Part shown: positions 3,459 through 26,684 of the stretch, one piece after another
Numbering within the stretch: position 1 is the stretch's first letter
Layout: each line of letters opens with the position of its first letter
Assembly (NCBI GenBank): GCA_017398425.1
Contig: JAFQFZ010000039.1
Coordinates: forward strand, 5,006 to 69,005
Direction of reading: 5' to 3'
Source: Clostridia bacterium
GTDB taxonomy: Bacteria; Bacillota; Clostridia; Oscillospirales; Acutalibacteraceae
Length of the DNA: 64,000 bases
Notes under the pieces: generated by a model
What the model saw: only the letters and a program-made list of their open reading frames with translations
What the model was told of the DNA's origin: nothing
Database searches by the model: none
Translations under genes and position numbers: made by a program

Positions 3459-5549
3459 ATGAAGCAGATCATCAAAAGCAGCATCGGCATCCTGTGTGCG
3501 CTGGCGTTATTGTTGACGGCGCTTCCCGCCATCGTCTTGACGACGGAGCCGCTCACGGCGGATGCGGCGGTGACGCACCTTCCCGTGCAACGCCAGTACG
3601 ATGCAAAATGGAAGAACTATTACATCGGCGGTCGTTCCATGTATCAGACCGCTTGCGGTATCTTCTCCATCGTCAACTCGGTCGGTTGGTTGACCGGCAA
3701 GTCGATGGACGTTATGGAAGTGGGTCGTTGGGCGTACAGCATCAAGGCGTTCAACTACTCTTCCGGCGGCACGACACGTTCGTTGCTCTATCCGAAGCTC
3801 CAAGCGAAGTACGGCGCGCAGTACGGCTTCACCGTGGACTGCAACGGCACGCAAGGCTACTGGGCCGGTGCGTCCAGCTCCCGCCTGAAGAATCACCTTG
3901 AGAACGGCGGCGTGGCGATCGCGCACGTGAAGGGTCACTTCATCGCGGTCGTTGATTACGATCGTTCCAGCAACAAGTTCCGCATCTTTGACAGTGCTCC
4001 CAGCTCGGCGCGCGGCAGTAACGTCTACGGCGAGTATGGTCTCGGTGACGTGTGGCTTTCGCAGAGCTTCCTGCAGACGACGGCCAAGATGACCATCGAC
4101 TGGTACTGCCTGCTCTCGAGCACTACGCCCGTGACTCCCGCGGACACCGCGGAAAAGATCGGCACCTGGCAGCTCAACAGCAAAGCGCCCGCCAGCGACC
4201 CCCTCAACGTCCGTGAGGGCCCCGGCACCTCCTACACCGATATCGGTGACTTGGTCCAGGGCGACATCGTCTACACCAGCGAGCTTTCGGGCAGCTGGGG
4301 CAAGATCAAGAAGATGGACAGCGGTCTCGAAGGCTGGGCGAGTGTTTCGAGCTACGCGGATTACATCGGCGTGGACGCGCTCGGCGGCACCCCGACGCCC
4401 GCGTGGGGCGATGTGAGCACCTATCTGGACGAAAACGGTCGCCGCACCATCATCAACAACTCCGCCACCGACACGGTGGGTTACGATTTGCTGTTGCCCA
4501 TCGATATCGGTGTGGACACCACGCCCTACATGAGCCTGCAGATCACCCCGAACTACGGCAACGGCTACTATTTCGGTATTTCGCAAAACGGCAGCAGTCA
4601 CTTCATGTTGCGCGACTGCAGCTCGAGCAGTCAGCTGGTCGTGGCGGAAACCGCGCCTTTCATGACCACGTGGGAGAAGTTGGAGATCGACCTGCGTGAC
4701 TGGTGGAAACCCGAAGGCGGCGAGAAAATCAACATGGTGCGTATCTATGTGGCGCCCTCCTCTTCGATCACGGTTGATTATTTCTACTTTGCCGCGGCGA
4801 GCGGTAAGGTCACCGATACGACCTACAACCTCATTCGTCAAGCGACTCCCATCATTAACGAGAACCTGATGGATCCCAACTCGATCGCAGTCGAGAGCTA
4901 TGATCGCAAAGGTTCCTATTCCTACGACAACGGTCGTTTGACGGTCACCTCCAACAGCCCTGAAGGCTACTCGGTCGTGTTCAACCTCAACAAGGACTTC
5001 AAACCCGCCGAGACGAAGAACTGGCTCTTTGACCTGACTTCGACCACCGGCTTTGACGTGCAGCTCGTGGCGACGACCTCGGTCGGTGATTGGAACTACG
5101 GCTTGGTTGCCGACTTCTGGCCGGGTCTGTGCGATACCCTCGAAGACGGCTATCTCCCCGCCGAGACCTACAAAGGCGAGTGCGACGTGTACAGCTGCTA
5201 CACCTGGAACAACAACCTGCCCGCCAACGGTGTCAGCACCATCAAGCAAGTGCGTGTGGTTCTGGCAGGCGAAGGCACCCTGACGCTGAACTCTTTGCAG
5301 GTTTCCAATACGACCGACATCGTGCGTTATGCGGACGGTCTGCAGAAGGAAGAGACCACCACCGGCGGTCTCAAGGGCGACGTGGACGGCAACGGCTCGG
5401 TTTCGACCGCGGATGCGCGCGAACTGCTGATGCTGCTCCTCACCGGTACCGGTATGGACGACAGCATGAAGGCGATCGCGGACTTCAACGGCGACGGTGA
5501 GGTTTCGACCTCCGATGCCCGTGAACTGCTCCTTTCGGTGCTTCTCTAA
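3459..5549 (+). CDS. Secreted C39-like (papain-fold) cysteine peptidase domain + SH3b + beta-sandwich region + C-terminal dockerin
   Basis: RBS AGGAGG and a signal peptide. Candidate Cys/His pair in YQTACGIFSI and GHFIAVVDYD. SH3-like LNVREGPGTSYTDIGDLVQGDIVY. Dockerin duplicate GDVDGNGSVSTADARELL / DFNGDGEVSTSDARELL. Confidence 0.75.
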   Translation: MKQIIKSSIGILCALALLLTALPAIVLTTEPLTADAAVTHLPVQRQYDAKWKNYYIGGRSMYQTACGIFSIVNSVGWLTGKSMDVMEVGRWAYSIKAFNYSSGGTTRSLLYPKLQAKYGAQYGFTVDCNGTQGYWAGASSSRLKNHLENGGVAIAHVKGHFIAVVDYDRSSNKFRIFDSAPSSARGSNVYGEYGLGDVWLSQSFLQTTAKMTIDWYCLLSSTTPVTPADTAEKIGTWQLNSKAPASDPLNVREGPGTSYTDIGDLVQGDIVYTSELSGSWGKIKKMDSGLEGWASVSSYADYIGVDALGGTPTPAWGDVSTYLDENGRRTIINNSATDTVGYDLLLPIDIGVDTTPYMSLQITPNYGNGYYFGISQNGSSHFMLRDCSSSSQLVVAETAPFMTTWEKLEIDLRDWWKPEGGEKINMVRIYVAPSSSITVDYFYFAAASGKVTDTTYNLIRQATPIINENLMDPNSIAVESYDRKGSYSYDNGRLTVTSNSPEGYSVVFNLNKDFKPAETKNWLFDLTSTTGFDVQLVATTSVGDWNYGLVADFWPGLCDTLEDGYLPAETYKGECDVYSCYTWNNNLPANGVSTIKQVRVVLAGEGTLTLNSLQVSNTTDIVRYADGLQKEETTTGGLKGDVDGNGSVSTADARELLMLLLTGTGMDDSMKAIADFNGDGEVSTSDARELLLSVLL

Positions 5550-6249: not shown

Positions 6250-6393
6250 GCATTTCCCTCCTTAGCGGTATCGTTTTCTTCAGTATATCACAGTTCTTTC
6301 GCAGTCGCAACGTGGAATTGTTATTGAAAATCGAGAGCGGTTGTTTTATAATAGAACCGGATGATATTACCTTGCCTCAAAGGAGGATGCTGT

Positions 6394-9300
6394 ATGAATA
6401 TGTTCGGTCGTATAGTGGGGATCGTGGGCGTTGTGTGCGGACTGTTGCTGTCACCGTTCACGCTGTGCGGTGTCGCACAGGCAGAAAATGCCCCTTTGCT
6501 TCAAAGCGGACGCTTTGAGACGGACAACAGCTTTTTGACCTACGAGCAATATGAAATGCTCGGGTTTGTCGGTTTGGGGTCTGCCGCGTCGCAGGATCTG
6601 GACCCGACCGCGCACCCTCTGCAGGATTACAACGACCCGTCCCTGACCTACACGGGAAACGTGGAATACGGTTGGTCGAATCCGCAGGTGCTCAGCGTGA
6701 TGCTGTCCTCGCCCTACTGGGATGAGCTGAACTACGGTGCGGACATGGGAGCCGCCGGCAGCACCAAATACACGGTGACAAGCGGTGTGGATATCGGCGG
6801 TACACTGGGGTATGACATCACGCTGTCCACCTCCTGCTCGGTGGCGGCGCGCGCGACCGCGGTCGGAAACGGAGCCGGTGCCGGTTTTGATGTGGGGGCG
6901 GCCGCCGGCTTTGCGCAAACGGTGCAGAGAAACAAAACCCAAAGCACGAGCTTTACCTTCGAAGCCGGTGCCGGGGACGACCACGTGGCGATGGTGGTGT
7001 TCCCGATGGCGGTGTATCAGTACGAATGGACGGTGAACGGCGAGAAGCAGTATGTGTTTGCCACAGTCCAGCTTACGCCGGTATTTGCCATGCAGACGCT
7101 CACCAACTACAACCGCGTTGCCAAACGATACAATCTGAACACCGACAGCACGCACTTGGTGCTTCCCGTGTTTGATATGCAGGATATTTGCCCCGGCTAT
7201 ACCCCGGGAGACCCGACAGGATGCTTCTCTGTGGAAAAGGGGTTACCGCAAGGCTTCACGATGATCAACGGAGCCTGGATGCCCTCGACGGTCGGTGACA
7301 CGCCCACCGCCGACCAAATTCGCGGCGAAACGCTGGTCTCCGCCTACGATTACACCGTCAGCCTCGGCAACGCCGACACCGGCGCGGAATCGAGTCTGGA
7401 AGTGTCCACCGCCGTCGGCGTATCGGGCGAAGTGCATGTGGCACTTTCCGGCTCGGTCTACGGCGAAGCCATCGGCGGATTTGATCTGTTTGGGTTTAAC
7501 GGTGAGGTCGCCGTACGGTCCACGTGGGGTGTGGAGTGCGGCGTGTCGCTGAGCACTTCACGCGTGATCAGCCGCGGCAACGCCTATTCCATGGAGTTTA
7601 TCGATCTTCCGTCTTCGGCGGCGACCGGTGTGACGGGACAAAATATCCCGAAAAGCGACTATGCGTTTCAAGCGCGGCTGGCGGTGTGGATGCCGACGGC
7701 CAAAGGGGAAAACGTAGCGTATGCCCCGTGCATCATCAGCCCCTTGACGGAGTTTTCCTCTGCAATGCCGTTGTATTTGCCCGACGATCTGCACGTGTCC
7801 GCTGTGACGCGTGACAGCATCACGCTGGCATGGTCGAACCCCGAAGAGTCGCCGCGCCTGCCGGATGTATATGCAGTGCATATGAAATCGGTCGGCGTCA
7901 CGTCGGCGTATTCCGAACGCACCACCGTCGATGCCGCGGCGCAGTCGATCACGATCGAGGGTTTGACTCCGAACACCACCTATGAGTTCGCGCTGTCGGC
8001 GCGCAAGGGCGAGCAAAACGGCGTGATCGGTCCATCGGTGACGGTGACTACGGTCGGCGACGGCTATCCGACCGTCACAAAGCAACCGACCGATCTGGTG
8101 GCTAAAGAGACGGAGAGAGCGGAGTTTTCCGTCGAAGCCGTGCCGTTTGAAAACGGCGCGAAGCTGACCTATCAATGGTATCGGTTGGACGAGGGACGCT
8201 ACGGCGCTTCGTGGACAAAGCTGATCGGACAAACCTCCGCCGTGTTCAACGCGGCGTACTATACCGCCGACGGTACGATCGGACGTGAAGATCGGGAAAC
8301 GCTTGACGGTACGATCTACGCCTGCCTCATCACCGAACAGCGCGCGTCGGGTGCGGTGAACATCAATTCCAACGCCGTGCGCCTGACCATCGATAACACC
8401 TACACTATCAAGAATTACAAAGAGCTTCGCGAACTGGCGCTCAGGGTGTCGCTCGGTGATCGGGAGGCGGCAAAGGCTACCTACTATCTCGACAACGACA
8501 TCGATGCCGCCGCGGGAGTGGAATGGGACGTCCCCATCGGTAGTGAGAGCGTTCCGTTTGTCGGAGCGTTTGACGGCCGCGGTCATACCATCCGCGGTCT
8601 GCATTACAGCGGCTACGATGCGCTCGGCTACCACGGTTTGTTCGGCGTTGTGTCCGATGCCGAACTGACGCGCATCTCGCTGGAGCAGGTGAACTTCAAT
8701 GTACAAGCCGCGTCGTTCGGTACGATCTGCGGCATGGCCACAAACGCAACAACCATCCGCGATTGCGCGGTCAGCGGCAAGATCAACGTCATCAACCGCA
8801 CCTATGCCGGCGGCATTTGCGGGTATGCGGCGTCGGGCAATGTGACGGTCGAACGTTGCCTTGTGAATGCCGAGATGGACACACGCGTCACCTATGCCGG
8901 CGGCATCTGCGGCTTTACCCGAGGTGATGTTCGCAACGTCGGCGTGGTTGGATCGCTCAAGGCGAAAAACCCCGCGTCTGACGGTCCCGACGGCGATGCA
9001 CCCGCCGGCTACGCGGGCGGTGTGTGCGGCTATTCGAAGGGCACTGTTTCCGATTCCTATTGCCGCGCCGACGTGGCCTACGGTCCGCACTATCGCAGCA
9101 ATATCACCAACGGCGCGCAAAGCAATTGCTATTACTACACTCCCACCGGCAACGGATCGGGTAATGTGCGCAGTGCGGCGGCGTTTGAAAGCGGTCAGGT
9201 CGCCTTTGAACTGAACAACGGCGTGACCGACGGCACACAGCCGTTCTATCAAGATCTCGATAACGGCAACACTCCGCAAGCTTATCCCGTGCTTGTCAAC

Positions 9301-9513
9301 AACGGAGACAACACGGTCTACGCCACCGAAGCGGGCGGTTATTCCAACGTGCAGATCATCGGTTCGTCGCCCGACCGCCCGCAGGACGATGCCGTGTCGT
9401 CGCCGCCGACGGGGGAATCGGATCCGATGTGGCTGTGGATGATCGGTTTGACGGCCATCTCGTTGCTGTCGGTGACTCTGATCGGCAAACGCCGAAAAGC
9501 CAAATCGTATTAA
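6394..9513 (+). CDS. Large surface protein: signal peptide, ~450-aa uncharacterised N-terminal domain, FN3, Ig-like, GLUG-repeat region, C-terminal TM anchor
   Basis: Start moved to the ATG at 6394, 7 nt after AGGAGG (the track starts at 6361). FN3-like LHVSAVTRDSITLAWSNP. YAGGICGY/YAGGVCGY recur as in GLUG motifs. C-terminal WLWMIGLTAISLLSVTLIGKRRKAK. Confidence 0.75.
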   Translation: MNMFGRIVGIVGVVCGLLLSPFTLCGVAQAENAPLLQSGRFETDNSFLTYEQYEMLGFVGLGSAASQDLDPTAHPLQDYNDPSLTYTGNVEYGWSNPQVLSVMLSSPYWDELNYGADMGAAGSTKYTVTSGVDIGGTLGYDITLSTSCSVAARATAVGNGAGAGFDVGAAAGFAQTVQRNKTQSTSFTFEAGAGDDHVAMVVFPMAVYQYEWTVNGEKQYVFATVQLTPVFAMQTLTNYNRVAKRYNLNTDSTHLVLPVFDMQDICPGYTPGDPTGCFSVEKGLPQGFTMINGAWMPSTVGDTPTADQIRGETLVSAYDYTVSLGNADTGAESSLEVSTAVGVSGEVHVALSGSVYGEAIGGFDLFGFNGEVAVRSTWGVECGVSLSTSRVISRGNAYSMEFIDLPSSAATGVTGQNIPKSDYAFQARLAVWMPTAKGENVAYAPCIISPLTEFSSAMPLYLPDDLHVSAVTRDSITLAWSNPEESPRLPDVYAVHMKSVGVTSAYSERTTVDAAAQSITIEGLTPNTTYEFALSARKGEQNGVIGPSVTVTTVGDGYPTVTKQPTDLVAKETERAEFSVEAVPFENGAKLTYQWYRLDEGRYGASWTKLIGQTSAVFNAAYYTADGTIGREDRETLDGTIYACLITEQRASGAVNINSNAVRLTIDNTYTIKNYKELRELALRVSLGDREAAKATYYLDNDIDAAAGVEWDVPIGSESVPFVGAFDGRGHTIRGLHYSGYDALGYHGLFGVVSDAELTRISLEQVNFNVQAASFGTICGMATNATTIRDCAVSGKINVINRTYAGGICGYAASGNVTVERCLVNAEMDTRVTYAGGICGFTRGDVRNVGVVGSLKAKNPASDGPDGDAPAGYAGGVCGYSKGTVSDSYCRADVAYGPHYRSNITNGAQSNCYYYTPTGNGSGNVRSAAAFESGQVAFELNNGVTDGTQPFYQDLDNGNTPQAYPVLVNNGDNTVYATEAGGYSNVQIIGSSPDRPQDDAVSSPPTGESDPMWLWMIGLTAISLLSVTLIGKRRKAKSY

Positions 9514-9518
9514 AAAAA

Positions 9519-9557
9519 CGAATCGCCCCTGCTTTTGAAAAAAGCAGGGGCGATTCG
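9519..9557. terminator. Bidirectional terminator
   Basis: cgaatcgcccctgctttt-gaaa-aaagcaggggcgattcg between convergent genes. Confidence 0.85.
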
Positions 9558-9574
9558 CGTTTCAGATCACGCGA

Positions 9575-12007
9575 TCATCCCAGGAGACTGAGGATGATCT
9601 GACGTGCATCGACGGTGGAGACGGTACCGTCGTGGTTGTAATCGGCGTAGGTGAGTTGTTCTTCGGTAAGTACATTGGGATCGATGGTGTATTTAAGCAC
9701 TTCGCGGCAATCGGTGGTGTTGACCGCGCCGTCCATGGTGACGTCACCGATGTCGTAGGTCGGCTCATCGGGATCGACGGGCGGTTCCACGGGCGGCTCG
9801 ACAACGGGCGGTGCGTTCGGATCGACCGCTGTAATGACGTAGGTGGGCTTACCGGCAAGACCCGGCTTGTGGTAATCAATGCCGTTCTTGTGGCGGTAGA
9901 CCACGCGGTAGAAGGTGTTGGGAGTCAATCCCGTAAAGGTGCCCGATTCCTGCCATGTCTCGCCGCCGTCGATGCTGATATCGTATCCGGTGCGCTCCGA
10001 CACGACGACCGTATCGTGGGTGAAGGACACCAGCGGCGGTACCTGCGAGGTGGCGGTGGTCTTGGTGGTGTATTCTAAGGTGATCGGCTCACTTGTCAGC
10101 GAACCGCGATAACTGCCCGTTGCCGTCACCTTAACGGTGATCTGCGAGCCGATGTACGACACGGCCGGCGTGTAGGTGCTCTTCGTTGCACCCGAGATCG
10201 CTTTGCCGTCGGCGTACCACTGATAGGAGAGCGTCGCGGCGTACGGTTTGACGGTAAACGTACCGGCAGTCAGCGTCGCACGGTATTCGGGAGCGCCGAG
10301 GATCTCCACTTCGCCCGAGATGGTCTTGCCGCTCGCCGTCGCGTAGCCGAACTGCTCGTCCATCCAGGCGATACGACCCTTCATATAGTTCTTCAGATAT
10401 TGCGTCTGCGCAAGCCACGATGTTTCACCGAGCTGAATGGCAGGAACGGAGAGCCACGAGGTGTTCGCGACCGCCGAGTCGTAGTTGTCGTGCCACAGCG
10501 CAAAGTTGTCGTTGGCGGCATCTTCAAGGTAGGGGACAAGACGGTCGATGTCTTCGAAGATCTTCTCAAGGATACCGCGGTCGTGCAGATCGGCCCAGCG
10601 TTTTTCCACCGCTGTGACGAAGCTGTCCATCTCGAACAGATTCTCATACCAGTCGGCGCGTTCGGTTTCGCGCGTGCGCCAACCGGTGGGATCGTCAATC
10701 TTGCTGTAAGCCACGGCACCCGAGCCGAGGTCGAAGTCCCATGCGGGACCCATAAAGAGCTTGCCGTCCTTATCCTTGAACAGCTTGACGCTGGAGAGGA
10801 AGTTGGAGTCGGTGTTTTTGAACGTCTCGTTGATGAGATACCAGTCGATGAAGCCGTCCATGTCGATATAATCCCACACGCGCTCGTCTTGTGCGCGGAT
10901 CAGATCGTTGACGGTTTGCAGATAGGTTTCGATGTAGTTGAGTTGTTCTTTGGAGGGGATCTCCGGCGTTTTGACCTGCACATACAGCTCTTGCTTGGAA
11001 TAGCCGCCGGTGTTTTCGATCACGAAATACGCCGCACCCTCCGATTCGTATTCCGCAAGAACGCGGGAGGAATCCTCGATCTCGAGGTAGTAGCCGACGT
11101 TGCCTTCGGGATAGAGCTGGACATCGTTGTCATCGAATTCGTCGCCGCTTTCGTCGATGGCGATGCGGGTGTCGTCGACCTGCACATGGTCGCCCATGTC
11201 ATACAATCCGAGGTAGGTACCGTTGAGGTACACTTCCACCGGGCGCATGCGCGGCACATAGACTTGGAAACCGGTGGTTTCGGCGGTGAAGGCGCTGAGT
11301 CGCGCACCGAAGCTGTAGGCAACGTCGTTGCGGATGGAAGCGGGATCCAGGAAGTTCGCCAAAAGCACCCAGCTCTTGGCTTTTCCGAGACCGAACACGT
11401 TTTGTTTGCTGTCAAACTTGATGCGATAGGGCTTCTTGTCATACAGCGAGGTGGAGTTGCCGCGCAGTTTGATGCCGCCCGTTGCCGCGATGATGTCCTT
11501 GCCGCCGTAGATGTCCGCACCGAGGACGGAAATCTCCGTCGGAACGTAATTGATCTTGTCGGGAATGGGAGCGTTCTCGGTATCGATGAGCACCACAGGG
11601 ATGCCGTTGTTTTCATCTACGATGGAGATCTGATATTCGGCGCGCGTGTTGTTGCCGTATACGATCAGCTCGTTTTCTTTCTTCAGCGTCACAGCCGTCT
11701 CGCCCGAGGTGATCTCGGTGCCGTTGAAGGTGACGGAATCTCCTTCAAACGCAAACTGCGGGATCAGCTCCGCGCCGACAAGGAGCGGATGGATTTTGGC
11801 GTTTTCCAGCACACGTCCGTCGCAAAGGGCGGTAAATTCCACGTCCCACGCAAGCCAGGCGTTGAGGGATTTCGGGAACGTCAGGGATGTCAGTTGGCAT
11901 CCGTTTTGCCCCCGGTAGACGGTGTAGCTGTCGAATGCCCAAACGGTACTCGGAAGAAGACCGATCAGCATCACGACAGCCAACAGAGTGGCAACGATTT
12001 TTTTCAT
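9575..12007 (-). CDS. cotH: CotH-family atypical kinase with Ig/FN3-like modules and C-terminal dockerin
   Basis: RBS GAGGAGG and a signal peptide. CotH blocks YDKKPYRIKFD, LLANFLDPASIRNDVAYSFG and VYLNGTYLGLYDMGDHV. Dockerin GDVTMDGAVNTTDCREVL / DYNHDGTVSTVDARQIIL. Confidence 0.8.
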   Translation of the reverse strand: MKKIVATLLAVVMLIGLLPSTVWAFDSYTVYRGQNGCQLTSLTFPKSLNAWLAWDVEFTALCDGRVLENAKIHPLLVGAELIPQFAFEGDSVTFNGTEITSGETAVTLKKENELIVYGNNTRAEYQISIVDENNGIPVVLIDTENAPIPDKINYVPTEISVLGADIYGGKDIIAATGGIKLRGNSTSLYDKKPYRIKFDSKQNVFGLGKAKSWVLLANFLDPASIRNDVAYSFGARLSAFTAETTGFQVYVPRMRPVEVYLNGTYLGLYDMGDHVQVDDTRIAIDESGDEFDDNDVQLYPEGNVGYYLEIEDSSRVLAEYESEGAAYFVIENTGGYSKQELYVQVKTPEIPSKEQLNYIETYLQTVNDLIRAQDERVWDYIDMDGFIDWYLINETFKNTDSNFLSSVKLFKDKDGKLFMGPAWDFDLGSGAVAYSKIDDPTGWRTRETERADWYENLFEMDSFVTAVEKRWADLHDRGILEKIFEDIDRLVPYLEDAANDNFALWHDNYDSAVANTSWLSVPAIQLGETSWLAQTQYLKNYMKGRIAWMDEQFGYATASGKTISGEVEILGAPEYRATLTAGTFTVKPYAATLSYQWYADGKAISGATKSTYTPAVSYIGSQITVKVTATGSYRGSLTSEPITLEYTTKTTATSQVPPLVSFTHDTVVVSERTGYDISIDGGETWQESGTFTGLTPNTFYRVVYRHKNGIDYHKPGLAGKPTYVITAVDPNAPPVVEPPVEPPVDPDEPTYDIGDVTMDGAVNTTDCREVLKYTIDPNVLTEEQLTYADYNHDGTVSTVDARQIILSLLG

Positions 12008-12029
12008 GTTGAGAACCTCCTCTTATCAA

Positions 12030-13433
12030 TCAGTCGTCCCTCTCGGAGGAGAACGACAAAATGTCTCCGTTGGCGGCGTCGATGAGATATTCGTATTCGA
12101 CGCCTCGATATTGAAACTCAAGTGCGTAGCGGATGTGGCCGCCTTGGTTTCTTGTGCGGATGTCCACGCGAATCGACAAATCGGGCACGTTGGCGTGCCG
12201 GAGTGCGATCTCCCGCGCTTGCTCGGCGGTAATGGGCATCGCTTTCGTTGCGGTCGTCGCAACGACCGTTGTCGTCGTGAGCGTTGTGGATTTCATGGTG
12301 GTTGAAGTCGCCGGCGTTGTCGAAGTCACCGTTGTGACCGGTGCGATCGTCGTTGCGGGAACCGATGCTTTGGTGGGGATAGTCACTTTGGTGGGTGCCG
12401 TGGTACGGATCTCCGTAGGACGGACGGTGCTTTCGGGACGGTCGTCCGCTTCTTTCTCCGCTTTCAGGATCGTGCCGTCCACGGCGTGAACGAGATATTC
12501 GTATTCCGTGGATTCAAACGTGAATTCCACTTCATAACACAGGACTCCGTTTTCACAGTCCCACTCCGCTTCCAGCTCGGTCACCGCGTCGGCCGTCAGC
12601 GTGGCATGCGCCAGCGCCGCCGCGGTCGCACGTTCGCGCCCGATGTACGCCCGTTCGCTTGCGTGACCGCGTCCGTGGACGGCAGGGAGCGCGATCTTTT
12701 CTGTCAACAAATGCAGGTCGTTGATCGGAAGTGTCGCCAAGCTCTCGAAGGTCTTAGTTTGGAGCGGATCGGCTTCGAGAATGCGACGCACCAACGCCGC
12801 TTTGCCAAGGCTGATGCCATGGGCATCGGCAAGCGCTTTCAGCTCGTCGTCCTTGACGACACGCTGGCTGAGTACCGCGCCCTCGACCTGTTTGTCGGCC
12901 ATGGTGCCGATCACTTCGTCGGTCAATTGTTGTTGCAACGTTTGCGCGTAGGTGTCATCGTCGTTATCAATGGTGATGAGAACGGAGTTTGCGGTATCGC
13001 TCAGATACCCGCCCTCCACCATAGAATCCACCAGCGCATCCACGGTATCGTTCAGCGAACGATCTTTCCAGTCGGTTTTTGCGAGGATCGCCTCGCCGTC
13101 GGCGTTCAGGGCGCGGACTTCAAGCACGGTTTCTTCTTTGTCCATAGAAATGGATACGCTGGGGTTGACGTCGAGCGAGACGACCGTCTCTGTCTTTGAT
13201 GCGAGGGGTAAGGGAGTATCCCTTCTCGAGAAATGCGAGATCATCGCACCGCCGATCACGGTCAACACCAGGGCGGCGGCGACGCTCATGGCGATATAGC
13301 GCCGAAAATGGGTTATTTTCGGGGGAGACGGAGGCGATTCCTCGCACGCGTCCAAAACTTCCTCGGATAAAGGCGGAACGGATAGCGCACCAAACCCATG
13401 TTGAACGTATTGTTCGATCTGTCGTTTTTTCAT
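12030..13433 (-). CDS. Anti-sigma-like single-pass membrane protein with two PepSY-like domains and a Thr-rich linker
   Basis: Start set at the ATG at 13433, forming an ATGA overlap with the sigma gene stop. TM segment YIAMSVAAALVLTVIGGAMISHF. PepSY-like ends (GVLCYEVEFTFESTEYEYLVHAVDGTIL; IRYALEFQYRGVEYEYLIDAANGDIL). No zf-HC2 motif is present. Confidence 0.65.
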   Translation of the reverse strand: MKKRQIEQYVQHGFGALSVPPLSEEVLDACEESPPSPPKITHFRRYIAMSVAAALVLTVIGGAMISHFSRRDTPLPLASKTETVVSLDVNPSVSISMDKEETVLEVRALNADGEAILAKTDWKDRSLNDTVDALVDSMVEGGYLSDTANSVLITIDNDDDTYAQTLQQQLTDEVIGTMADKQVEGAVLSQRVVKDDELKALADAHGISLGKAALVRRILEADPLQTKTFESLATLPINDLHLLTEKIALPAVHGRGHASERAYIGRERATAAALAHATLTADAVTELEAEWDCENGVLCYEVEFTFESTEYEYLVHAVDGTILKAEKEADDRPESTVRPTEIRTTAPTKVTIPTKASVPATTIAPVTTVTSTTPATSTTMKSTTLTTTTVVATTATKAMPITAEQAREIALRHANVPDLSIRVDIRTRNQGGHIRYALEFQYRGVEYEYLIDAANGDILSFSSERDD

Positions 13434-14002
13434 GCAGTATCCCCTTTTTCTAAAATCACACGTAGCTTCTTCAAAGCGCGGCTGTATTTGGACAGCACGG
13501 TCGGTAACGCGAGATGTAAGATTTGGGCAATTTCGCGATGGCGAAAACCACTCACCGCATGCAACACCACGATCTGTCGTTCTTCGTCGGACAGACGGTT
13601 CATGCAAGCGGACAAGGCCAATCGATCTTCGGTCGTGCACGGTATGCGGTCGTCGATCCATCCTTGCTCATCTTCTTCGGAGAGCGGGGTGGTTTTTTGC
13701 CGTGTGCGCAGCACCTGTACACAACGGTTATGTACAATGGTATAGATCCATGCTTTCGCTTTCCCTTGCGGGCGATAGGTTTTAGTGCCATGCACGATGG
13801 AAAGAAAGCTGTCCTGCAACACGTCCTGCGCGTCGTGCTCGTTTTGCACGACGGACAAGGCATAACCGTAGACCTCCTTGGAGATCGCTTCGTACAGACG
13901 CTGTAAGGCGTCACGGTCTCCCTGTCGTACGCGGTCAAGGAGATCGTCCAAATCCGGTGAGGCTGTGCTGTTCGCTACCGACGTCAAGTAGACTGTCAGC
14001 AC
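13430..14002 (-). CDS. ECF (sigma-70 family) RNA polymerase sigma factor
   Basis: Regions 2 and 4 are recognisable (DALQRLYEAISKEVYGYALSVV; LSDEERQIVVLHAVSGFRHREIAQILHLALPTVLSKYSRALKKL). Start set to the GTG at 14002, 9 nt after AGGAG. The track's TTG at 14011 directly abuts the RBS. Confidence 0.85.
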   Translation of the reverse strand: MLTVYLTSVANSTASPDLDDLLDRVRQGDRDALQRLYEAISKEVYGYALSVVQNEHDAQDVLQDSFLSIVHGTKTYRPQGKAKAWIYTIVHNRCVQVLRTRQKTTPLSEEDEQGWIDDRIPCTTEDRLALSACMNRLSDEERQIVVLHAVSGFRHREIAQILHLALPTVLSKYSRALKKLRVILEKGDTA

Positions 14003-14119
14003 ATTTCTCAACTCCTTTCATATACTTTAACGCGTGAACAAGGCATTTTATTGCACCGAATATAAAAAATTACGCGCCGCGACCGAAATTATCAGCCGCG
14101 ACGCGTTGTCGTTGGTAGA

Positions 14120-15407: not shown

Positions 15408-16379
15408 TCAGTCGACGGAAAGATGGACAAAGTTTCCGCTGAAAGACCACACGAAGTCCTCCTCCGGATTGCTTGAGGAAGAGATAAAGTTCAAATCCGA
15501 AATGAGGATTTCGGAATAGGAGGCAGGTGCCAGTGCTTTGAACGTGAGTCGGAAGAGCGGTTCGCCGTTTGTGTGGTTGCCGACCGAGCGGTGCGTGTCA
15601 AATTCGATGCGCACCGTGCCGTCTTCCGATTTGGAGGACGAAAACGCCGTGCCGTCCGGGAAGGCGGTGGCGGCGATGCCGTTTACATAGGGGTTTTGGA
15701 CACCCTCGCCGTTGACTGCGACCAATTCCATCACGTTCGCGTCGTAGGCGACGGTGAGCGAGCCTTTCACAAGGCAGGTCGTTCCGTTTGAGGAAAACGG
15801 GACGGTAAACAGCTCACCGACCGTTCCCACGGTTTCTACGGGAGAAAAGCGGACGAAGTGTACGATCGCTCCGAGCGGCGGCAACATACCACCATCGTGT
15901 TTTGTGGTTGTGGTGGTTGAAGGAACGGTGGTCGGGGAGGTGCTTCCCGTTGTAGAGACCGCGGTCGGCACGGTGGTCGGCGGCACGGTGGTCGGCGGCA
16001 CGGTGGTCCCGACGGTCGTTTGCACTGTAGTGTCGACTGTTGTGACGACGGTGCGGTCGGTGTCCTGCGTTACTTCGGTAGAGCCGGTGGTGGAGACGGC
16101 GGAGACGTCGGTCGATTCGCTCGAAGGCGGAGATGTTGTGTCATGCGGTGAAACGACGGTCGTCGTAACGGACGTAGGAATGGTCGTGGTGGTATCGGTG
16201 CCGAGCGGCACGGGTGTGCGATTGGCAGTGAAAAAGGTGGTTACCACCAACGCCATGGCACCGCAGAGCACGGCACCGCCGCAGATGGCGCGTGTGCGAC
16301 GACGCACCTTGGCAATGTGAATGATGCGTTCTTCACCGCGGCGGTGAATTTCTTGCTTCAACTCTTGCAAATCTCTCAA
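15408..16379 (-). CDS. Single-pass membrane protein: short basic cytoplasmic tail, TM, Thr/Pro-rich linker, C-terminal cohesin-like domain (putative anti-sigma-like partner)
   Basis: TTG start 7 nt after GGAGG, overlapping the sigma stop (TTGA). TM segment AICGGAVLCGAMALVVTTFF. The C-terminal ~150 aa follow the cohesin pattern (GELFTVPFSSNG..LVKGSLTVAYDANVMELVAV...DGTVRIEFD...GEPLFRLTFKAL). Confidence 0.55.
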   Translation of the reverse strand: MRDLQELKQEIHRRGEERIIHIAKVRRRTRAICGGAVLCGAMALVVTTFFTANRTPVPLGTDTTTTIPTSVTTTVVSPHDTTSPPSSESTDVSAVSTTGSTEVTQDTDRTVVTTVDTTVQTTVGTTVPPTTVPPTTVPTAVSTTGSTSPTTVPSTTTTTKHDGGMLPPLGAIVHFVRFSPVETVGTVGELFTVPFSSNGTTCLVKGSLTVAYDANVMELVAVNGEGVQNPYVNGIAATAFPDGTAFSSSKSEDGTVRIEFDTHRSVGNHTNGEPLFRLTFKALAPASYSEILISDLNFISSSSNPEEDFVWSFSGNFVHLSVD

Positions 16380-16921
16380 AACGGCACCTCCTCTCTCGAT
16401 AACAGTTCTTTGAGTTCTTTGCGTGCGCGATACAGCAGGTTGTCTATCTGTTTGGCGCTTTTCTTCATGACGCGCCCCGCGTCCTCGTAGGACAGATCCT
16501 CGAAGTACACTAAGTGTACCGCACTTTGCATGTCGGACGACAATTTTTCGATCGCGGCGGCCAGCGCCAGTGACTGATCGGATTTTTCGATGGGGTTTGC
16601 CTCTTGTGCTTCGTCGATCAACTCGCTGACGTCGGCAAAGCTGTGCGTGTTGCGCCGCTTATGATGGCGCAGATACGTCAGCGCACGGCTGCGACCGACC
16701 ATGAAAACGTACGTTTTCAATGACACCTTGAAGTTGTAGCGATACTTGTAGGCAAACAATTCAACAAAGGTGTCCACGGCAATGTCCTCAGCCGCTTGAT
16801 AATCCTGCACATAGCGATTCAGATAGTTCACAAGCTTGTGGAACATATCGTCCACGATGGCGTCGAATGCGTCTTTATCGCCGTCTATGTAGCGTTGATA
16901 GTGTTCGGCGTTGGTATCCAT
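16376..16921 (-). CDS. ECF (sigma-70 family) RNA polymerase sigma factor
   Basis: RBS GGAAAGGAG. Region 2 (DAFDAIVDDMFHKLVNYLNRYV..AEDIAVDTFVELF) and region 4 (YFEDLSYEDAGRVMKKSAKQIDNLLYRARKELK). Confidence 0.85.
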   Translation of the reverse strand: MDTNAEHYQRYIDGDKDAFDAIVDDMFHKLVNYLNRYVQDYQAAEDIAVDTFVELFAYKYRYNFKVSLKTYVFMVGRSRALTYLRHHKRRNTHSFADVSELIDEAQEANPIEKSDQSLALAAAIEKLSSDMQSAVHLVYFEDLSYEDAGRVMKKSAKQIDNLLYRARKELKELLSREEVPF

Positions 16922-23117: not shown

Positions 23118-26100
23118 TCAGCTTCCCGATACGGTTTTGAACAGACGAAGCGCGTCCATCATATTGATGGTGCCGTCTCCCGTATAATCCGCGATCGCTT
23201 CTTGTTCCGCGGTCATCTCTCTGGCACCGTTGACGCAACCGAAGAGAAGCAGCGCATCCATCGTGTTGAGCATACCGTCTCCGTTCATGTCGCCCAGAAG
23301 CGCGGCCGTGCCGACGGTGATCTCAACGTAATCGTATTCGTCGAATCCCGTCGTGCCGTCCCACGGGGTCATCGCGTCACTGCCGTATTCGCTGACTGTC
23401 ACCGTGGCGCCGTCAGCGATCGACACATCGCACCATGCGATCGCGTAATCGATGGGTGTACGGGCAATGAGCGTGCCGCCGTTGACCGTCACCGGCGGAT
23501 AATCGTCGCCGTTGATGCCGCACTGCGGCCCGTACACGTCCAGTGTGCCGCCGTTCACCGTCAGGCTTTTATACAGCCAGAGGCCGTCGTATTTATTGTC
23601 CTTCACGACAACCGTGCCGCTGTTCACCGTGACGTCGCCCGTTGCAAAAATTCCTTCGCCGTTCGTGATCAGCGTCAAGTCGCCGTCACCCTCCAACGTC
23701 AGCGAGCTGCCGGTGACGATGCCGTTGGCGTTCGGCGACGTCAGTGTCGAGGACAGCTCCGTCTTGATTGTCAGCGGGTGATAGGCGTCAACCATGTTAT
23801 AATCGCCCTGCGCTGTCCACGTAAAATCATGCAGCGTCAGTACGCCGTCTTTGTAGTAGGCGTAGCCTGCGTCCTTGTCAACAGTATCTTCGGTTCGGAC
23901 ACCCCAATGATCGCTGTCGAGATACAGGCCGTCCCGCAACCACATACCGCCGACGAACACGCCGTCGACGTTTTTGGCAAGTTCGAAGGTGCGTGCCGCT
24001 TCGACCGTGTTCACGGCACCGTCATCCGTGTTGCTGTCGGTCGAATAGACAAAGCTTGCGGGAACGCCGTCCACGGTGACGTTAACGGCAAGGGTGCCTT
24101 CGTTATCGGTGGCAAACCAACCGCCGTCGTACGTTTCCAACGTCGCGTACACCTGATGGCGGCGATCGGATTTGAACTTACCGTCCAGTCGGCTGAAGCC
24201 GGCTCCCGCCGTACCCGGATTGGTTTCATAGTACCACTCCAGCCCCGTGTAATTTACAAGGTCGGTTTTGACGACTGCGTCGCTGTCGGGTGTTTTGCCG
24301 CCGATCGGATACTGCACGTCCACGATCTCGATATCGGTGATGCACGAGGCGGTGTCGTATTCGGCGTACACAACCGCCGCTTCATCCGTCAGATAATAAT
24401 ATTGTGCGAACTCGCCGTTGAGCACCGCACCGCGGGAGTCAAGATTGATGGACCGTCCCGCAGACGGAAGGAGACGGATCTCGACCCGATACACGGTGTT
24501 CTTCTTGAAGCATTCCTCATAGGAAAGCGAAGCGATCCGATATCCGTTGTCATCCAGCTCATACCACGTCACACCGCCGAATTGTGTGTAGGGACTGCTG
24601 ATCGTCACGTTAAAGTCGGGCGCTTGTCCCGGCGCAGGGCGCATCAGTTCGCCGATCTCCGCATAATCGGTCACACCCGTATAGGAAGCCTCCCCAAGCT
24701 CACCGTATGCCCACAGAACGCTCGCCGTACATCCGTCATCACTAACAACGATGTTCAGACCGGTAGAGCCGTCATAACCGTTATACAGGGTTTCGTTGCC
24801 GTTGACCGATCCGCGGATCACGGCGGTCTGTGCAAACGTATACGGTTCTGCCGCTTCCACGGTATACACCGCGCTGTACGTATTTCCTTTTCGGAACGTC
24901 GTGTTCTCGGCCATCGTATGGCCGTTTTCGATCCACGTCACGCCGGTGACGGTGGCATAGGGCATCAACGCTTCCGTCAGCGACGCGTCGGCATAGGGGC
25001 GCTGTCCGACGGACGGTGCCACCGCGCCGATAACGTCGATGCGGTTGATCGGATCCGGTAAGGAAGCGAGCGGAATATAAAGCGCGGCCACCTGGATCTG
25101 TTTTGAAGATACCGGCTGAAAGTTCGTTTGAACCGCACCGCGGACAGACACGTTGAGCGGTTGCTCGTCCGTTGAAAAGTCACTCAAAGAATCCGCGGAT
25201 ACGCCGACCACCCACGCATAGAGGTAACCTTCTTCAAAAACGTCATTTACGGTCAGCTCACGGATCTCGGATTCGTTCTCGCTGATGCGCAACCACGTAA
25301 GATCTACGGATTCTTTAGCGGCGGGAATATCCTCTTTGTATCCGTATTCTACGGTGGCCACCGTATCCACCTTGTTTCCGACTACGGGAGTACGGATATC
25401 GGTGAAGGTGATATCCTCAATGGTACGGGACGTGCTGTTACAGGCGGGAAAATCAAATGTGACCTGCACGATCTGTGCAGGACTTTGATCGCCGTACGGT
25501 TCCACTCGTGCAGGCAATCCGTTGACAGTGGCACGGATATACGGATCGACCGTGCCGTCCTCGTGCAAAAGGTAACAAAGGCGCGTGCTGTCCTGGAAAA
25601 TCGATTTGGCTTTCACCAGTACCGTGACGCTGTAGTCGGCGCCCTCGTTGAACACCGAATTGCTGTTACACGTGAAATGATTTGTGCGGTTGACCCATTT
25701 GACACCGTCATAAAACCCGTTCGCGGTCACGGGTGCGTATTCGCAGTTTTCGCCGTAAAGTGTCGGCGCGTACGACGCTTTTTTGCCTGCCACGGGATAC
25801 GGGATATTCAGACCGATACGGTCGGCACCGCCGCCGAGAACATCGGTGTCGGCGCAGGTGAATTTGGTGCGAAGCTTCAAGTAGCGGCTCTGATCCTCTT
25901 CTTGCGCCGAGATATTGACAGCCTCAATGCCTTCAACGGTTGCGTTTACGGCACTTTCTCCGCCTTCGGTGGCAAAACGGTAAGGATCTTTGGCTCTCAG
26001 CTGTATTTCCATGGTATAGGTTTCGCCCGCTTTAAAGGTATCGGTTTCGTCTAAAATGGAATACGTATTGCTGTTATACCACGCAACGCCGTTGATAAAC

Positions 26101-26684
26101 GCCGTGCCTGCGTAAGGATCGATCTCCATACGCTCGTGATCGTACGCCAGTGTAAAGACGGGAGCTTCCCCTGCAACGGGGCGAAGATTACCGCCGACCG
26201 CCACTTCGGCAATATCGGGAGGCGGATTTTTACATACCCCGAAATCGTATGTCACCACGGCCTTACTGGCATAGCCGTTCGTAACGACGGCAGGTTCGCC
26301 GTTGACCGTTGCTTCCAATGAGGAAGAAAATTGATAGAAATAGTTTTGGACGTACACGGCCACGTGCACCGTATATGCGTGTCCCGCGACGAAAAGTTCT
26401 CCTTCCTCCAGATAACGTCCGTCGGTATAATCGTACCAACCGACACCGCGATGGTAATGGAGATTGTCTTTCTGCTCCACATATACACGCGCGGCGTTGG
26501 TCGGCAACGCACCGACTCCGACGTCAAAGTCCGCTTCACGCCCTGCCATCGGTGCCTCGGCGTATACTTTTAAAAAAGTCAATGTGTCAATATGCAGTCC
26601 GTCGGCCAACGCTGACAGCGGCAATGCATTACACAGCATGAACAAAACCGCAACAACGGCGGTTATCGCTTTCTGCATTTTCAT
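23118..26684 (-). CDS. 1188-aa secreted modular protein: ~8 reiterated ~120-aa beta-sandwich-like modules, a beta-helix-like segment and a C-terminal dockerin
   Basis: RBS AAAGGAGG and signal peptide MKMQKAITAVVAVLFMLCNALPLSALA. Modules repeatedly end in ..ATVNG.PA.V. The segment LTLEGDGDLTLITNGEGIFATGDVTVNSGTVVV..LTVNGGTLDV is beta-helix-like. Dockerin GDMNGDGMLNTMDALLLF / DYTGDGTINMMDALRLF. Confidence 0.75.
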   Translation of the reverse strand: MKMQKAITAVVAVLFMLCNALPLSALADGLHIDTLTFLKVYAEAPMAGREADFDVGVGALPTNAARVYVEQKDNLHYHRGVGWYDYTDGRYLEEGELFVAGHAYTVHVAVYVQNYFYQFSSSLEATVNGEPAVVTNGYASKAVVTYDFGVCKNPPPDIAEVAVGGNLRPVAGEAPVFTLAYDHERMEIDPYAGTAFINGVAWYNSNTYSILDETDTFKAGETYTMEIQLRAKDPYRFATEGGESAVNATVEGIEAVNISAQEEDQSRYLKLRTKFTCADTDVLGGGADRIGLNIPYPVAGKKASYAPTLYGENCEYAPVTANGFYDGVKWVNRTNHFTCNSNSVFNEGADYSVTVLVKAKSIFQDSTRLCYLLHEDGTVDPYIRATVNGLPARVEPYGDQSPAQIVQVTFDFPACNSTSRTIEDITFTDIRTPVVGNKVDTVATVEYGYKEDIPAAKESVDLTWLRISENESEIRELTVNDVFEEGYLYAWVVGVSADSLSDFSTDEQPLNVSVRGAVQTNFQPVSSKQIQVAALYIPLASLPDPINRIDVIGAVAPSVGQRPYADASLTEALMPYATVTGVTWIENGHTMAENTTFRKGNTYSAVYTVEAAEPYTFAQTAVIRGSVNGNETLYNGYDGSTGLNIVVSDDGCTASVLWAYGELGEASYTGVTDYAEIGELMRPAPGQAPDFNVTISSPYTQFGGVTWYELDDNGYRIASLSYEECFKKNTVYRVEIRLLPSAGRSINLDSRGAVLNGEFAQYYYLTDEAAVVYAEYDTASCITDIEIVDVQYPIGGKTPDSDAVVKTDLVNYTGLEWYYETNPGTAGAGFSRLDGKFKSDRRHQVYATLETYDGGWFATDNEGTLAVNVTVDGVPASFVYSTDSNTDDGAVNTVEAARTFELAKNVDGVFVGGMWLRDGLYLDSDHWGVRTEDTVDKDAGYAYYKDGVLTLHDFTWTAQGDYNMVDAYHPLTIKTELSSTLTSPNANGIVTGSSLTLEGDGDLTLITNGEGIFATGDVTVNSGTVVVKDNKYDGLWLYKSLTVNGGTLDVYGPQCGINGDDYPPVTVNGGTLIARTPIDYAIAWCDVSIADGATVTVSEYGSDAMTPWDGTTGFDEYDYVEITVGTAALLGDMNGDGMLNTMDALLLFGCVNGAREMTAEQEAIADYTGDGTINMMDALRLFKTVSGS

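Follow-up and report, generated by a model that had tools for sequence, protein, structure and literature searches.

A predicted operon encoding an ECF sigma factor, a SEAL-PepSY anti-sigma factor and a dockerin-tagged CotH protein in an uncultured Clostridia bacterium

Results and Discussion

A compact three-gene unit on the minus strand

A 64-kb stretch of DNA (hereafter the window) from an uncultured gut or rumen Clostridia bacterium (contig JAFQFZ010000039.1, assembly GCA_017398425.1), whose genes were read from the sequence alone, carries on its minus strand and between two strong terminators a trio of genes for an extracytoplasmic function (ECF) sigma factor, an anti-sigma factor, and a CotH protein with a dockerin (CotH-Doc). 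We consider it probable, with real room left for other explanations, that the trio is a lineage-specific three-gene operon in which an autoregulated ECF sigma factor is paired with a SEAL-PepSY anti-sigma factor and has CotH-Doc as its output. The parts are individually known; what is new here is the combination of ECF sigma factor, PepSY sensor and CotH-Doc gene in cis. The elements of the unit, in the order of transcription, are as follows.

14072-14106, minus strand: intrinsic terminator that ends the upstream LPG_synthase_TM gene (15-bp stem with 10 GC pairs, then a T-run)
14027-14055, minus strand: predicted autoregulatory ECF promoter, TGCAATAAAA-N13-CGTTAA, just past the upstream terminator (-35-like element 14055-14046, -10-like element 14032-14027)
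13430-14002, minus strand: ECF-type sigma factor, 190 residues (Pfam Sigma70_r2 and Sigma70_r4_2; TIGR02937)
12030-13433, minus strand: single-pass anti-sigma factor, 467 residues (ATGA overlap; Pfam RsgI_M and PepSY; orthologue alignment)
9575-12007, minus strand: secreted CotH-dockerin protein, 810 residues (Pfam, AF2 model, Foldseek)
9518-9558, minus strand: intrinsic terminator that closes the unit, 17 nt past the CotH stop codon (19-bp stem with 10 GC pairs, then a T-run)

The TGA of the sigma gene and the ATG of the anti-sigma gene share an ATGA at 13433-13430, and exactly 22 nt, ttgataagaggaggttctcaac, which include an AGGAGG ribosome-binding site, lead from the anti-sigma stop (12030) to the CotH ATG (12007). 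A search of the minus strand between 14072 and 9558 found no strong internal terminator, and the final 300 nt of the window's anti-sigma gene showed no sigma-70-like site. The upstream terminator is predicted to insulate the triplet against upstream transcription. An earlier note on this DNA had described the three genes as one operon-like unit, and the overlap, the short gap with only a ribosome-binding site and the flanking terminators agree with that description.

The sigma factor

The maximal open reading frame of the sigma gene spans 13430-14011 and opens with TTG; the GTG at 14002, 9 nt after a GGAG, is the more plausible predicted start, and it agrees both with the coordinate of the earlier note and with the public call of 190 residues. 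The protein carries regions 2 and 4 only (Pfam) and scores 85 bits against the NCBIfam model TIGR02937 (sigma70-ECF; cut-off 42.9), so that its earlier assignment as an ECF-type sigma factor stands. Among the NCBIfam models no equivalog was reached, and no sigma-I model stood among the top matches. Features of the ECF (group 4) class are present, including small size, a co-encoded anti-sigma factor and a putative autoregulatory promoter.

A SEAL domain between the membrane and the PepSY domains of the anti-sigma factor

The anti-sigma factor is divided into the following parts, all encoded on the minus strand.

Residues 1-45: cytoplasmic N-terminus, a short segment ahead of the transmembrane helix
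13230-13298: transmembrane helix, residues about 46-68
12789-13187: SEAL (RsgI_M, PF23750) autoproteolytic domain (Pfam E = 9e-29, 101 bits vs 25.3)
13161-13166: predicted scissile bond Asn90/Pro91, within the motif LDVNPS
12456-12644: PepSY domain 1 (Pfam; best stretch 265-327 in a translation with one extra N-terminal residue)
12045-12236: PepSY domain 2, approximate bounds (second Pfam stretch; conserved C-terminal block in the orthologue alignment)

As the earlier note had proposed, the protein sits in the membrane and has two PepSY domains on the outside; Pfam finds both domains (E = 1e-18, two stretches). The label of a PepSY anti-sigma factor is nevertheless incomplete: the note had missed the RsgI-type SEAL domain, which lies next to the membrane, ahead of the PepSY domains, and contains LDVNPS. 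This motif is invariant across four orthologues whose overall identity in the anti-sigma factor is only 38-42%. The distal region is more variable. A Thr-rich linker of ~70 residues separates PepSY 1 from PepSY 2 in the window's protein; in orthologues the linker is acidic or holds a third PepSY domain, with three PepSY domains in the protein of locus L083 and long acidic tails in those of loci L085 and L169. Public automatic annotation gives an anti-sigma factor of 419 residues, starting 48 codons late, by which the cytoplasmic sigma-binding segment is lost. We favour the protein of 467 residues with the ATGA overlap because the orthologue alignment shows a conserved N-terminus.

In SEAL domains, self-cleavage takes place at a conserved Asn-Pro located between strands one and two, and the two halves hold together as long as the ectodomain is in place; once it has gone, RasP/RseP cuts the remaining stub (PMC10556640, PMC10328401). 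The Asn-Pro cleavage site has been demonstrated experimentally for RsgI proteins (PMC10328401, PMC10556640). By analogy, the presence of a SEAL domain here implies a specific activation route, namely autocleavage followed by site-2 proteolysis. The window's protein shares with the SigI/RsgI systems of B. subtilis and C. thermocellum a single membrane pass, a membrane-proximal SEAL domain with Asn-Pro, distal sensor domains and apparent autoregulation. It differs from them in that it lacks RsgI_N, has a cytoplasmic part of only ~45 residues, and is paired with an ECF sigma factor and an ECF-like promoter. No match to RsgI_N was obtained in the N-terminal 82 residues, even at E < 10, and membership of the RsgI family was rejected, since both that domain and a sigma-I partner are missing. 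The protein thus appears to work like RsgI outside the membrane, yet falls outside the RsgI family.

Fusions of SEAL and PepSY are frequent and widespread in Firmicutes (Brogan et al. 2023, PMC10556640); they have no disordered region and are sometimes without an anti-sigma or transmembrane part (Brogan et al. 2023, PMC10556640). The domain combination is the same as that of the window's anti-sigma factor, whereas the latter has a cytoplasmic segment, a transmembrane helix, a Thr-rich linker and an ECF sigma factor, and is followed by CotH-Doc uniquely in the window's clade. The significance of the locus in this respect is that it presents RsgI-type SEAL signalling as a system of ECF sigma factors too, with PepSY domains as the sensors.

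The CotH-dockerin protein keeps the kinase active site

The third gene encodes a protein with the following parts, again on the minus strand.

Residues 1-24: predicted signal peptide, cut at VWA/FD (MKKIVATLLAVVMLIGLLPSTVWA then FD, by inspection only)
Residues about 30-130: N-terminal beta-sandwich
10361-11473: CotH kinase-like domain, residues 179-549 (PF08757, E = 1e-44)
10736-10810: CotH active-site aspartates, D400 (KNTD, 10808-10810) and D424 (WDFD, 10736-10738)
Residues about 560-735: immunoglobulin (Ig)-like and fibronectin type III (FN3)-like modules, then a Pro-rich linker (Foldseek, phmmer)
9584-9748: type-I dockerin, residues 754-808 (Dockerin_1 E = 8e-9, 36.1 bits vs 22.9)

The match to PF08757 reaches 153.6 bits, compared with a gathering score of 23.8, and covers the entire profile (1-322). 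In an AF2 model built from 29 homologues, with a predicted local distance difference test (pLDDT) score of 82.1, the best Foldseek matches were the B. cereus CotH structures 5JDA/5JD9 (E = 8e-13, TM-score 0.69 normalised to the target), followed by FN3/Ig tandems that matched residues 560-735; phmmer additionally matched this middle region to phage Hoc. The dockerin has two Ca-binding repeats, DVTMDGAVNTTD and DYNHDGTVSTVD, and many solved dockerins were matched when the PDB was searched with a profile of homologues. An identical protein in NCBI, derived from a metagenome-assembled genome (MAG), is named 'CotH kinase family protein [Clostridia bacterium]'. The earlier description of a secreted CotH protein with Ig/FN3-like modules and a C-terminal dockerin is therefore supported by the predicted signal peptide, the Foldseek tandems and the Dockerin_1 score.

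Searching the PDB with phmmer missed 5JD9, which was found only with a profile of homologues. In the resulting alignment D400 and D424 fall on two aspartates 23 residues apart in Bacillus CotH, so the catalytic residues, whose absence would have spoken against a CotH kinase, are intact. All 46 homologues compared have D424, and at least 90% of them have D400; conservation of the catalytic and metal-binding aspartates, as of the Lys-Lys strand, is strict. D400 corresponds to the catalytic D228 of B. subtilis CotH and D424 to its metal-binding D251, a numbering mapped through what we take to be the B. subtilis sequence, with D228 in NYD and D251 in WDYD. Inactivating mutations of B. subtilis CotH lie at D228 and D251 (PMC7821199). 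Relative to Bacillus CotH (5JD9/5JDA), then, the window's protein has the same fold and the same two aspartates. It differs in its sequence (~15% identity), in having a signal peptide, a dockerin and large N- and C-terminal extensions, and in a gene position outside the cotB/cotG context with no link to sporulation sigma factors.

The earlier note had drawn attention to an exported, dockerin-tagged CotH. Such proteins are not new: CotH-Doc proteins have long been known from cellulosomes, where no function has been defined for them, and include CseP of C. thermocellum, Ccel_1101 of R. cellulolyticum and fungal examples (PMC4711584, PMC12774918, PMC12484212). Sigma-I6, which is paired with the SEAL-bearing anti-sigma factor RsgI6, recognises the cseP promoter (PMC4711584, PMC10328401). 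CseP (Cthe_0044/Clo1313_2188) and Ccel_1101 resemble the window's protein in being secreted and in combining a CotH domain with a C-terminal type-I dockerin. They differ from it in that the window's CotH-Doc gene is the third gene, in cis, of a sigma/anti-sigma operon, with an ECF sigma factor in place of sigma-I, that the sensor is PepSY and not a carbohydrate-binding or GH module, and that the protein has extra Ig/FN3 modules. In addition, there are no cellulases near the window's gene, and dockerins of this host occur on SH3_3 and Cthe_2159-like proteins. A CotH-Doc gene behind a small sigma/anti-sigma switch offers an experimental handle on the cellulosome CotH proteins.

Conservation of the triplet within one lineage

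Dozens of CotH-Doc homologues, 55-72% identical, were found in MAGs from rumen and gut that carry the labels Oscillospiraceae or Acutalibacteraceae. The gene context was examined for nine homologues and fell into four classes. The order sigma / SEAL-PepSY / CotH-Doc is kept in L081 and L082, L083 and L085, so that relatives do carry the triplet, a point on which the operon proposed earlier depended. The triplet occurs in at least four other contigs, the genes that flank it differ from locus to locus, and within its clade identities are 64-72% for CotH and about 33-42% for the anti-sigma factor. On a neighbour-joining tree every sigma-linked CotH protein falls in one clade, which, together with the differing flanks, argues that the triplet is a conserved unit within one lineage. 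Locus L169 has an anti-sigma gene, a CotH gene and a CotH-Doc gene, the position of the sigma gene being lost at the contig end; between its two CotH genes (3916-4046) there is a terminator-like hairpin and then a promoter-like element. Only 22-27 nt, holding nothing but a ribosome-binding site, separate the anti-sigma gene from CotH in L085, L169 and the window, which leaves no room for an internal CotH promoter.

Other contexts were found as well. In L087 the CotH gene lies between two other dockerin proteins, and GCA_054281815.1 has at least three CotH-Doc genes in one genome. Conserved tandem pairs of sister CotH-Doc paralogues, consisting of a protein of ~800-980 residues and then one of ~980-1035 residues, occur in L001-L003, L084 and L086 with neither a sigma nor an anti-sigma gene nearby. 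A scan of genome contigs gave only four close relatives, all of them in sigma-free tandem CotH pairs; the triplet orthologues came from a separate search for encoding contigs.

A promoter motif ahead of the sigma gene

The element TGCAATAAAA-N13-CGTTAA occurs once in the 64-kb window. The identical motif stands at an equal distance from the sigma gene in L083 and L085, and L081 has it with a variant -10 element. A motif of this kind would be expected for an ECF promoter under autoregulation, which is what we predict it to be. It was sought before the tandem CotH pairs and before the other genes of the window and was absent there; CotH expression from the sigma promoter in the window would depend on read-through.

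A metagenome scan with the anti-sigma alignment confirmed at least 562 relatives, and the best 80 loci were examined. Most of these 80 have an orthologous ECF sigma gene directly upstream of the SEAL-PepSY gene, with phmmer E-values mostly of 1e-40 to 1e-55. The consensus upstream of the sigma genes in this wider family is aTGCAATAAAA-N12/13-GCATTAa, followed by a GAAAGGAG ribosome-binding site. Written as a regular expression, it matched 26 of the family's 42 distinct sigma upstream regions, and ~49 of its 57 matches in 1.22 Mb fell at sigma upstream regions; no second copy was found ahead of cargo genes in the wider family. This putative family-wide promoter motif is newly defined here. In loci L112-L153, from a common organism in human gut metagenomes, a gene for a LysM-domain protein of 260-304 residues stands at a constant distance of ~60 nt behind the sigma/SEAL-PepSY pair. 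The SEAL-PepSY/ECF family is widespread in gut Firmicutes, and its conserved promoter motif allows genome-wide regulon prediction.

Proposed mechanism and competing explanations

In the mechanism that we propose, the ECF sigma factor would be held at the membrane by the single-pass anti-sigma factor, with the SEAL and PepSY domains outside. By analogy with RsgI, the SEAL domain would cleave itself constitutively at Asn90/Pro91, the halves remaining bound, until an extracellular stimulus acting on the PepSY ectodomain (ligand binding or pulling force) dislodged the outer half. A site-2 protease of the RasP/RseP type, which would be encoded outside the window, could then cut the membrane stub, again by analogy, and release the sigma factor, which would transcribe from TGCAATAAAA-N13-CGTTAA, with read-through yielding sigma factor, anti-sigma factor and CotH-Doc. 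The latter would be exported by Sec, and its dockerin would fix it to a surface or scaffold protein that bears a cohesin. Being a kinase-type, Fam20-like enzyme whose active site is intact, it would probably phosphorylate a surface or extracellular substrate. The kinase activity, substrate, ATP source, inducing signal and docking partner of this scheme are ones that we infer.

Several observations weigh against this reading. A CotH gene was found within 5 kb of the SEAL-PepSY gene in none of the 80 loci (0/80) of the wider family, where the downstream gene is variable, being unrelated or convergent, and the scan as a whole suggests that the sigma/SEAL-PepSY pair is the widespread module and CotH-Doc a lineage-specific cargo outside its core logic. 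A perfect TTGACA-18-TATAAT in L083 (7933-7962) overlaps the anti-sigma stop codon ahead of CotH, and L081 has a TATAAT and a hairpin in the interval between these two genes; some relatives may express CotH independently or additionally. CotH-Doc pairs without a sigma factor exist in L001-L003, L084 and L086. By appearance the three genes of the window form one predicted operon, but we infer their co-transcription from geometry alone; the ECF control of CotH that the earlier note had proposed is likewise putative, and the housekeeping-type elements of L083 and L081 run counter to it. In L170 (3605-8439) and L171 (3578-8439), again with no sigma factor, the gene of a close CotH-Doc paralogue (P0027/P0034, 57-61% identical) shares a 4-nt overlap with a fused GT2/polysaccharide pyruvyl-transferase gene. 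For none of the cellulosomal CotH proteins has a substrate been identified (PMC12774918), and an extracellular kinase needs a supply of ATP outside the cell, of which none is evident.

The wider family, the promoter elements of L083 and L081 and the sigma-free paralogues all favour an explanation in which the adjacency has little regulatory meaning, CotH-Doc, one of several such paralogues of a cohesin-dockerin surface system, having come to lie downstream and being expressed mainly from its own housekeeping promoter while the sigma and anti-sigma factors form a self-contained envelope-stress module. We hold this unlikely, though worth serious consideration, as it sits poorly with the gaps of 22-27 nt in the window, L085 and L169, with the lack of a sigma-70-like site in the end of the window's anti-sigma gene, and with a gene order that has been kept despite rearranged flanks and the divergence noted above, particularly of the anti-sigma factor.

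A second explanation, which we judge rather improbable, leaves the operon in place and changes the role of its product: CotH-Doc would in practice not be a protein kinase and would act on glycans or cell-wall polymers like Fam20B, or be structural or adhesive, so that the operon would adjust surface glycopolymer chemistry or complex assembly. The Fam20 family includes a xylose kinase. The overlap of the close paralogue P0027/P0034 with the GT2/pyruvyl-transferase gene is a hint that members of this CotH family act on cell-surface glycopolymers or work alongside them, and other members of the sigma family precede a LysM cell-wall-binding protein. CotH is distantly related to the Fam20 family (PMC7821199); for the cellulosomal CotH proteins no function has been defined, and an extracellular kinase role has been deemed unexpected (PMC12774918, PMC12484212). 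Set against this, the strictly kept aspartates and Lys-Lys strand argue for an active phosphotransferase of some kind, and the characterised bacterial CotH enzymes phosphorylate Ser/Thr-rich proteins (PMC7821199).

The operon reading can also be carried further, to a dedicated surface-phosphorylation circuit in which a cue from the envelope or surface, received by the SEAL-PepSY protein, would switch on the dockerin-anchored CotH kinase, which in turn would phosphorylate components of a cohesin-dockerin assembly or the cell wall and feed back on the sensor, possibly via a neighbouring cohesin-bearing anti-sigma factor (see below). We regard this extended form as doubtful, on the order of a long shot. 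If true, it would give cellulosomal CotH a first defined regulatory input and physiological role, and bacteria a case of regulated extracellular phosphorylation.

A cohesin-bearing neighbour and the dockerin system of the window

The gene at 15408-16379 (minus strand) encodes a membrane protein of 323 residues and overlaps by 4 nt another ECF sigma gene (16376-16921, minus strand). Its short cytoplasmic N-terminus leads into one transmembrane helix and a Thr/Pro-rich linker, and ~160 residues make up the C-terminal domain, in which a cohesin domain lies at 15411-15893. The match to Pfam Cohesin (29.3 bits, gathering score 24.1) was obtained with the isolated domain; a Pfam scan of the full-length protein missed it. 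A single-sequence model of the domain was weak (pLDDT 63), with cohesin modules as its top Foldseek matches. A search for homologous proteins returned nothing but the protein itself, and an exhaustive HMMER search gave two proteins of the same architecture, P0122 and P0123, of which P0122 passes the Cohesin threshold (33.4 bits). WD40-repeat matches in that HMMER search were discarded as spurious, stemming from a short repeat-like stretch. Literature searches for a cohesin-bearing putative anti-sigma factor did not find one.

The earlier note had suggested that the CotH dockerin might bind a cohesin-like domain in this protein. The cohesin domain itself is borne out; its adjacency to the triplet is not conserved, as the orthologous triplet loci lack this cohesin-bearing neighbour. 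A functional link between the neighbour and the CotH dockerin is possible and unsupported by conservation. The same neighbour, a putative anti-sigma factor 1.4 kb upstream of the triplet, and the Thr-rich linkers in both anti-sigma proteins of the window raise the idea of a closed sensing loop, in which the PepSY ectodomain binds CotH-Doc, or CotH-Doc docks on the neighbour's cohesin and modifies the Thr-rich linkers, feeding back on the sigma factor. We consider such a loop very improbable, given that the neighbour is missing from the orthologous loci, that the Thr-rich linker of the anti-sigma factor is replaced by acidic linkers in orthologues, and that the wider sigma/SEAL-PepSY family works without CotH.

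Three further dockerin proteins are encoded in the window.

3459-5549, plus strand: SH3_3-dockerin protein
23118-26684, minus strand: Cthe_2159-like dockerin protein, 1188 residues
62542-63441, minus strand: dockerin protein of 299 residues

The last of these contains two near-identical internal repeats of ~85 residues each. With CotH-Doc, the window holds four dockerin proteins and one cohesin domain, which suggests that the organism uses a cohesin-dockerin system. Comparison of the four dockerins gave no clear specificity grouping. No cellulases lie in the vicinity, only a GH31 protein at 28689-31172, and the system seems to display non-cellulolytic proteins.

On the other side of the closing terminator, and convergent with the triplet, a gene at 6361-9513 (plus strand) encodes a surface protein of 1050 residues that has a signal peptide and an FN3 domain and weakly matches the N-terminal region of M26 IgA proteases. 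It ends in SPPTG, a hydrophobic stretch and KRRKAKSY, which together resemble a sortase sorting signal.

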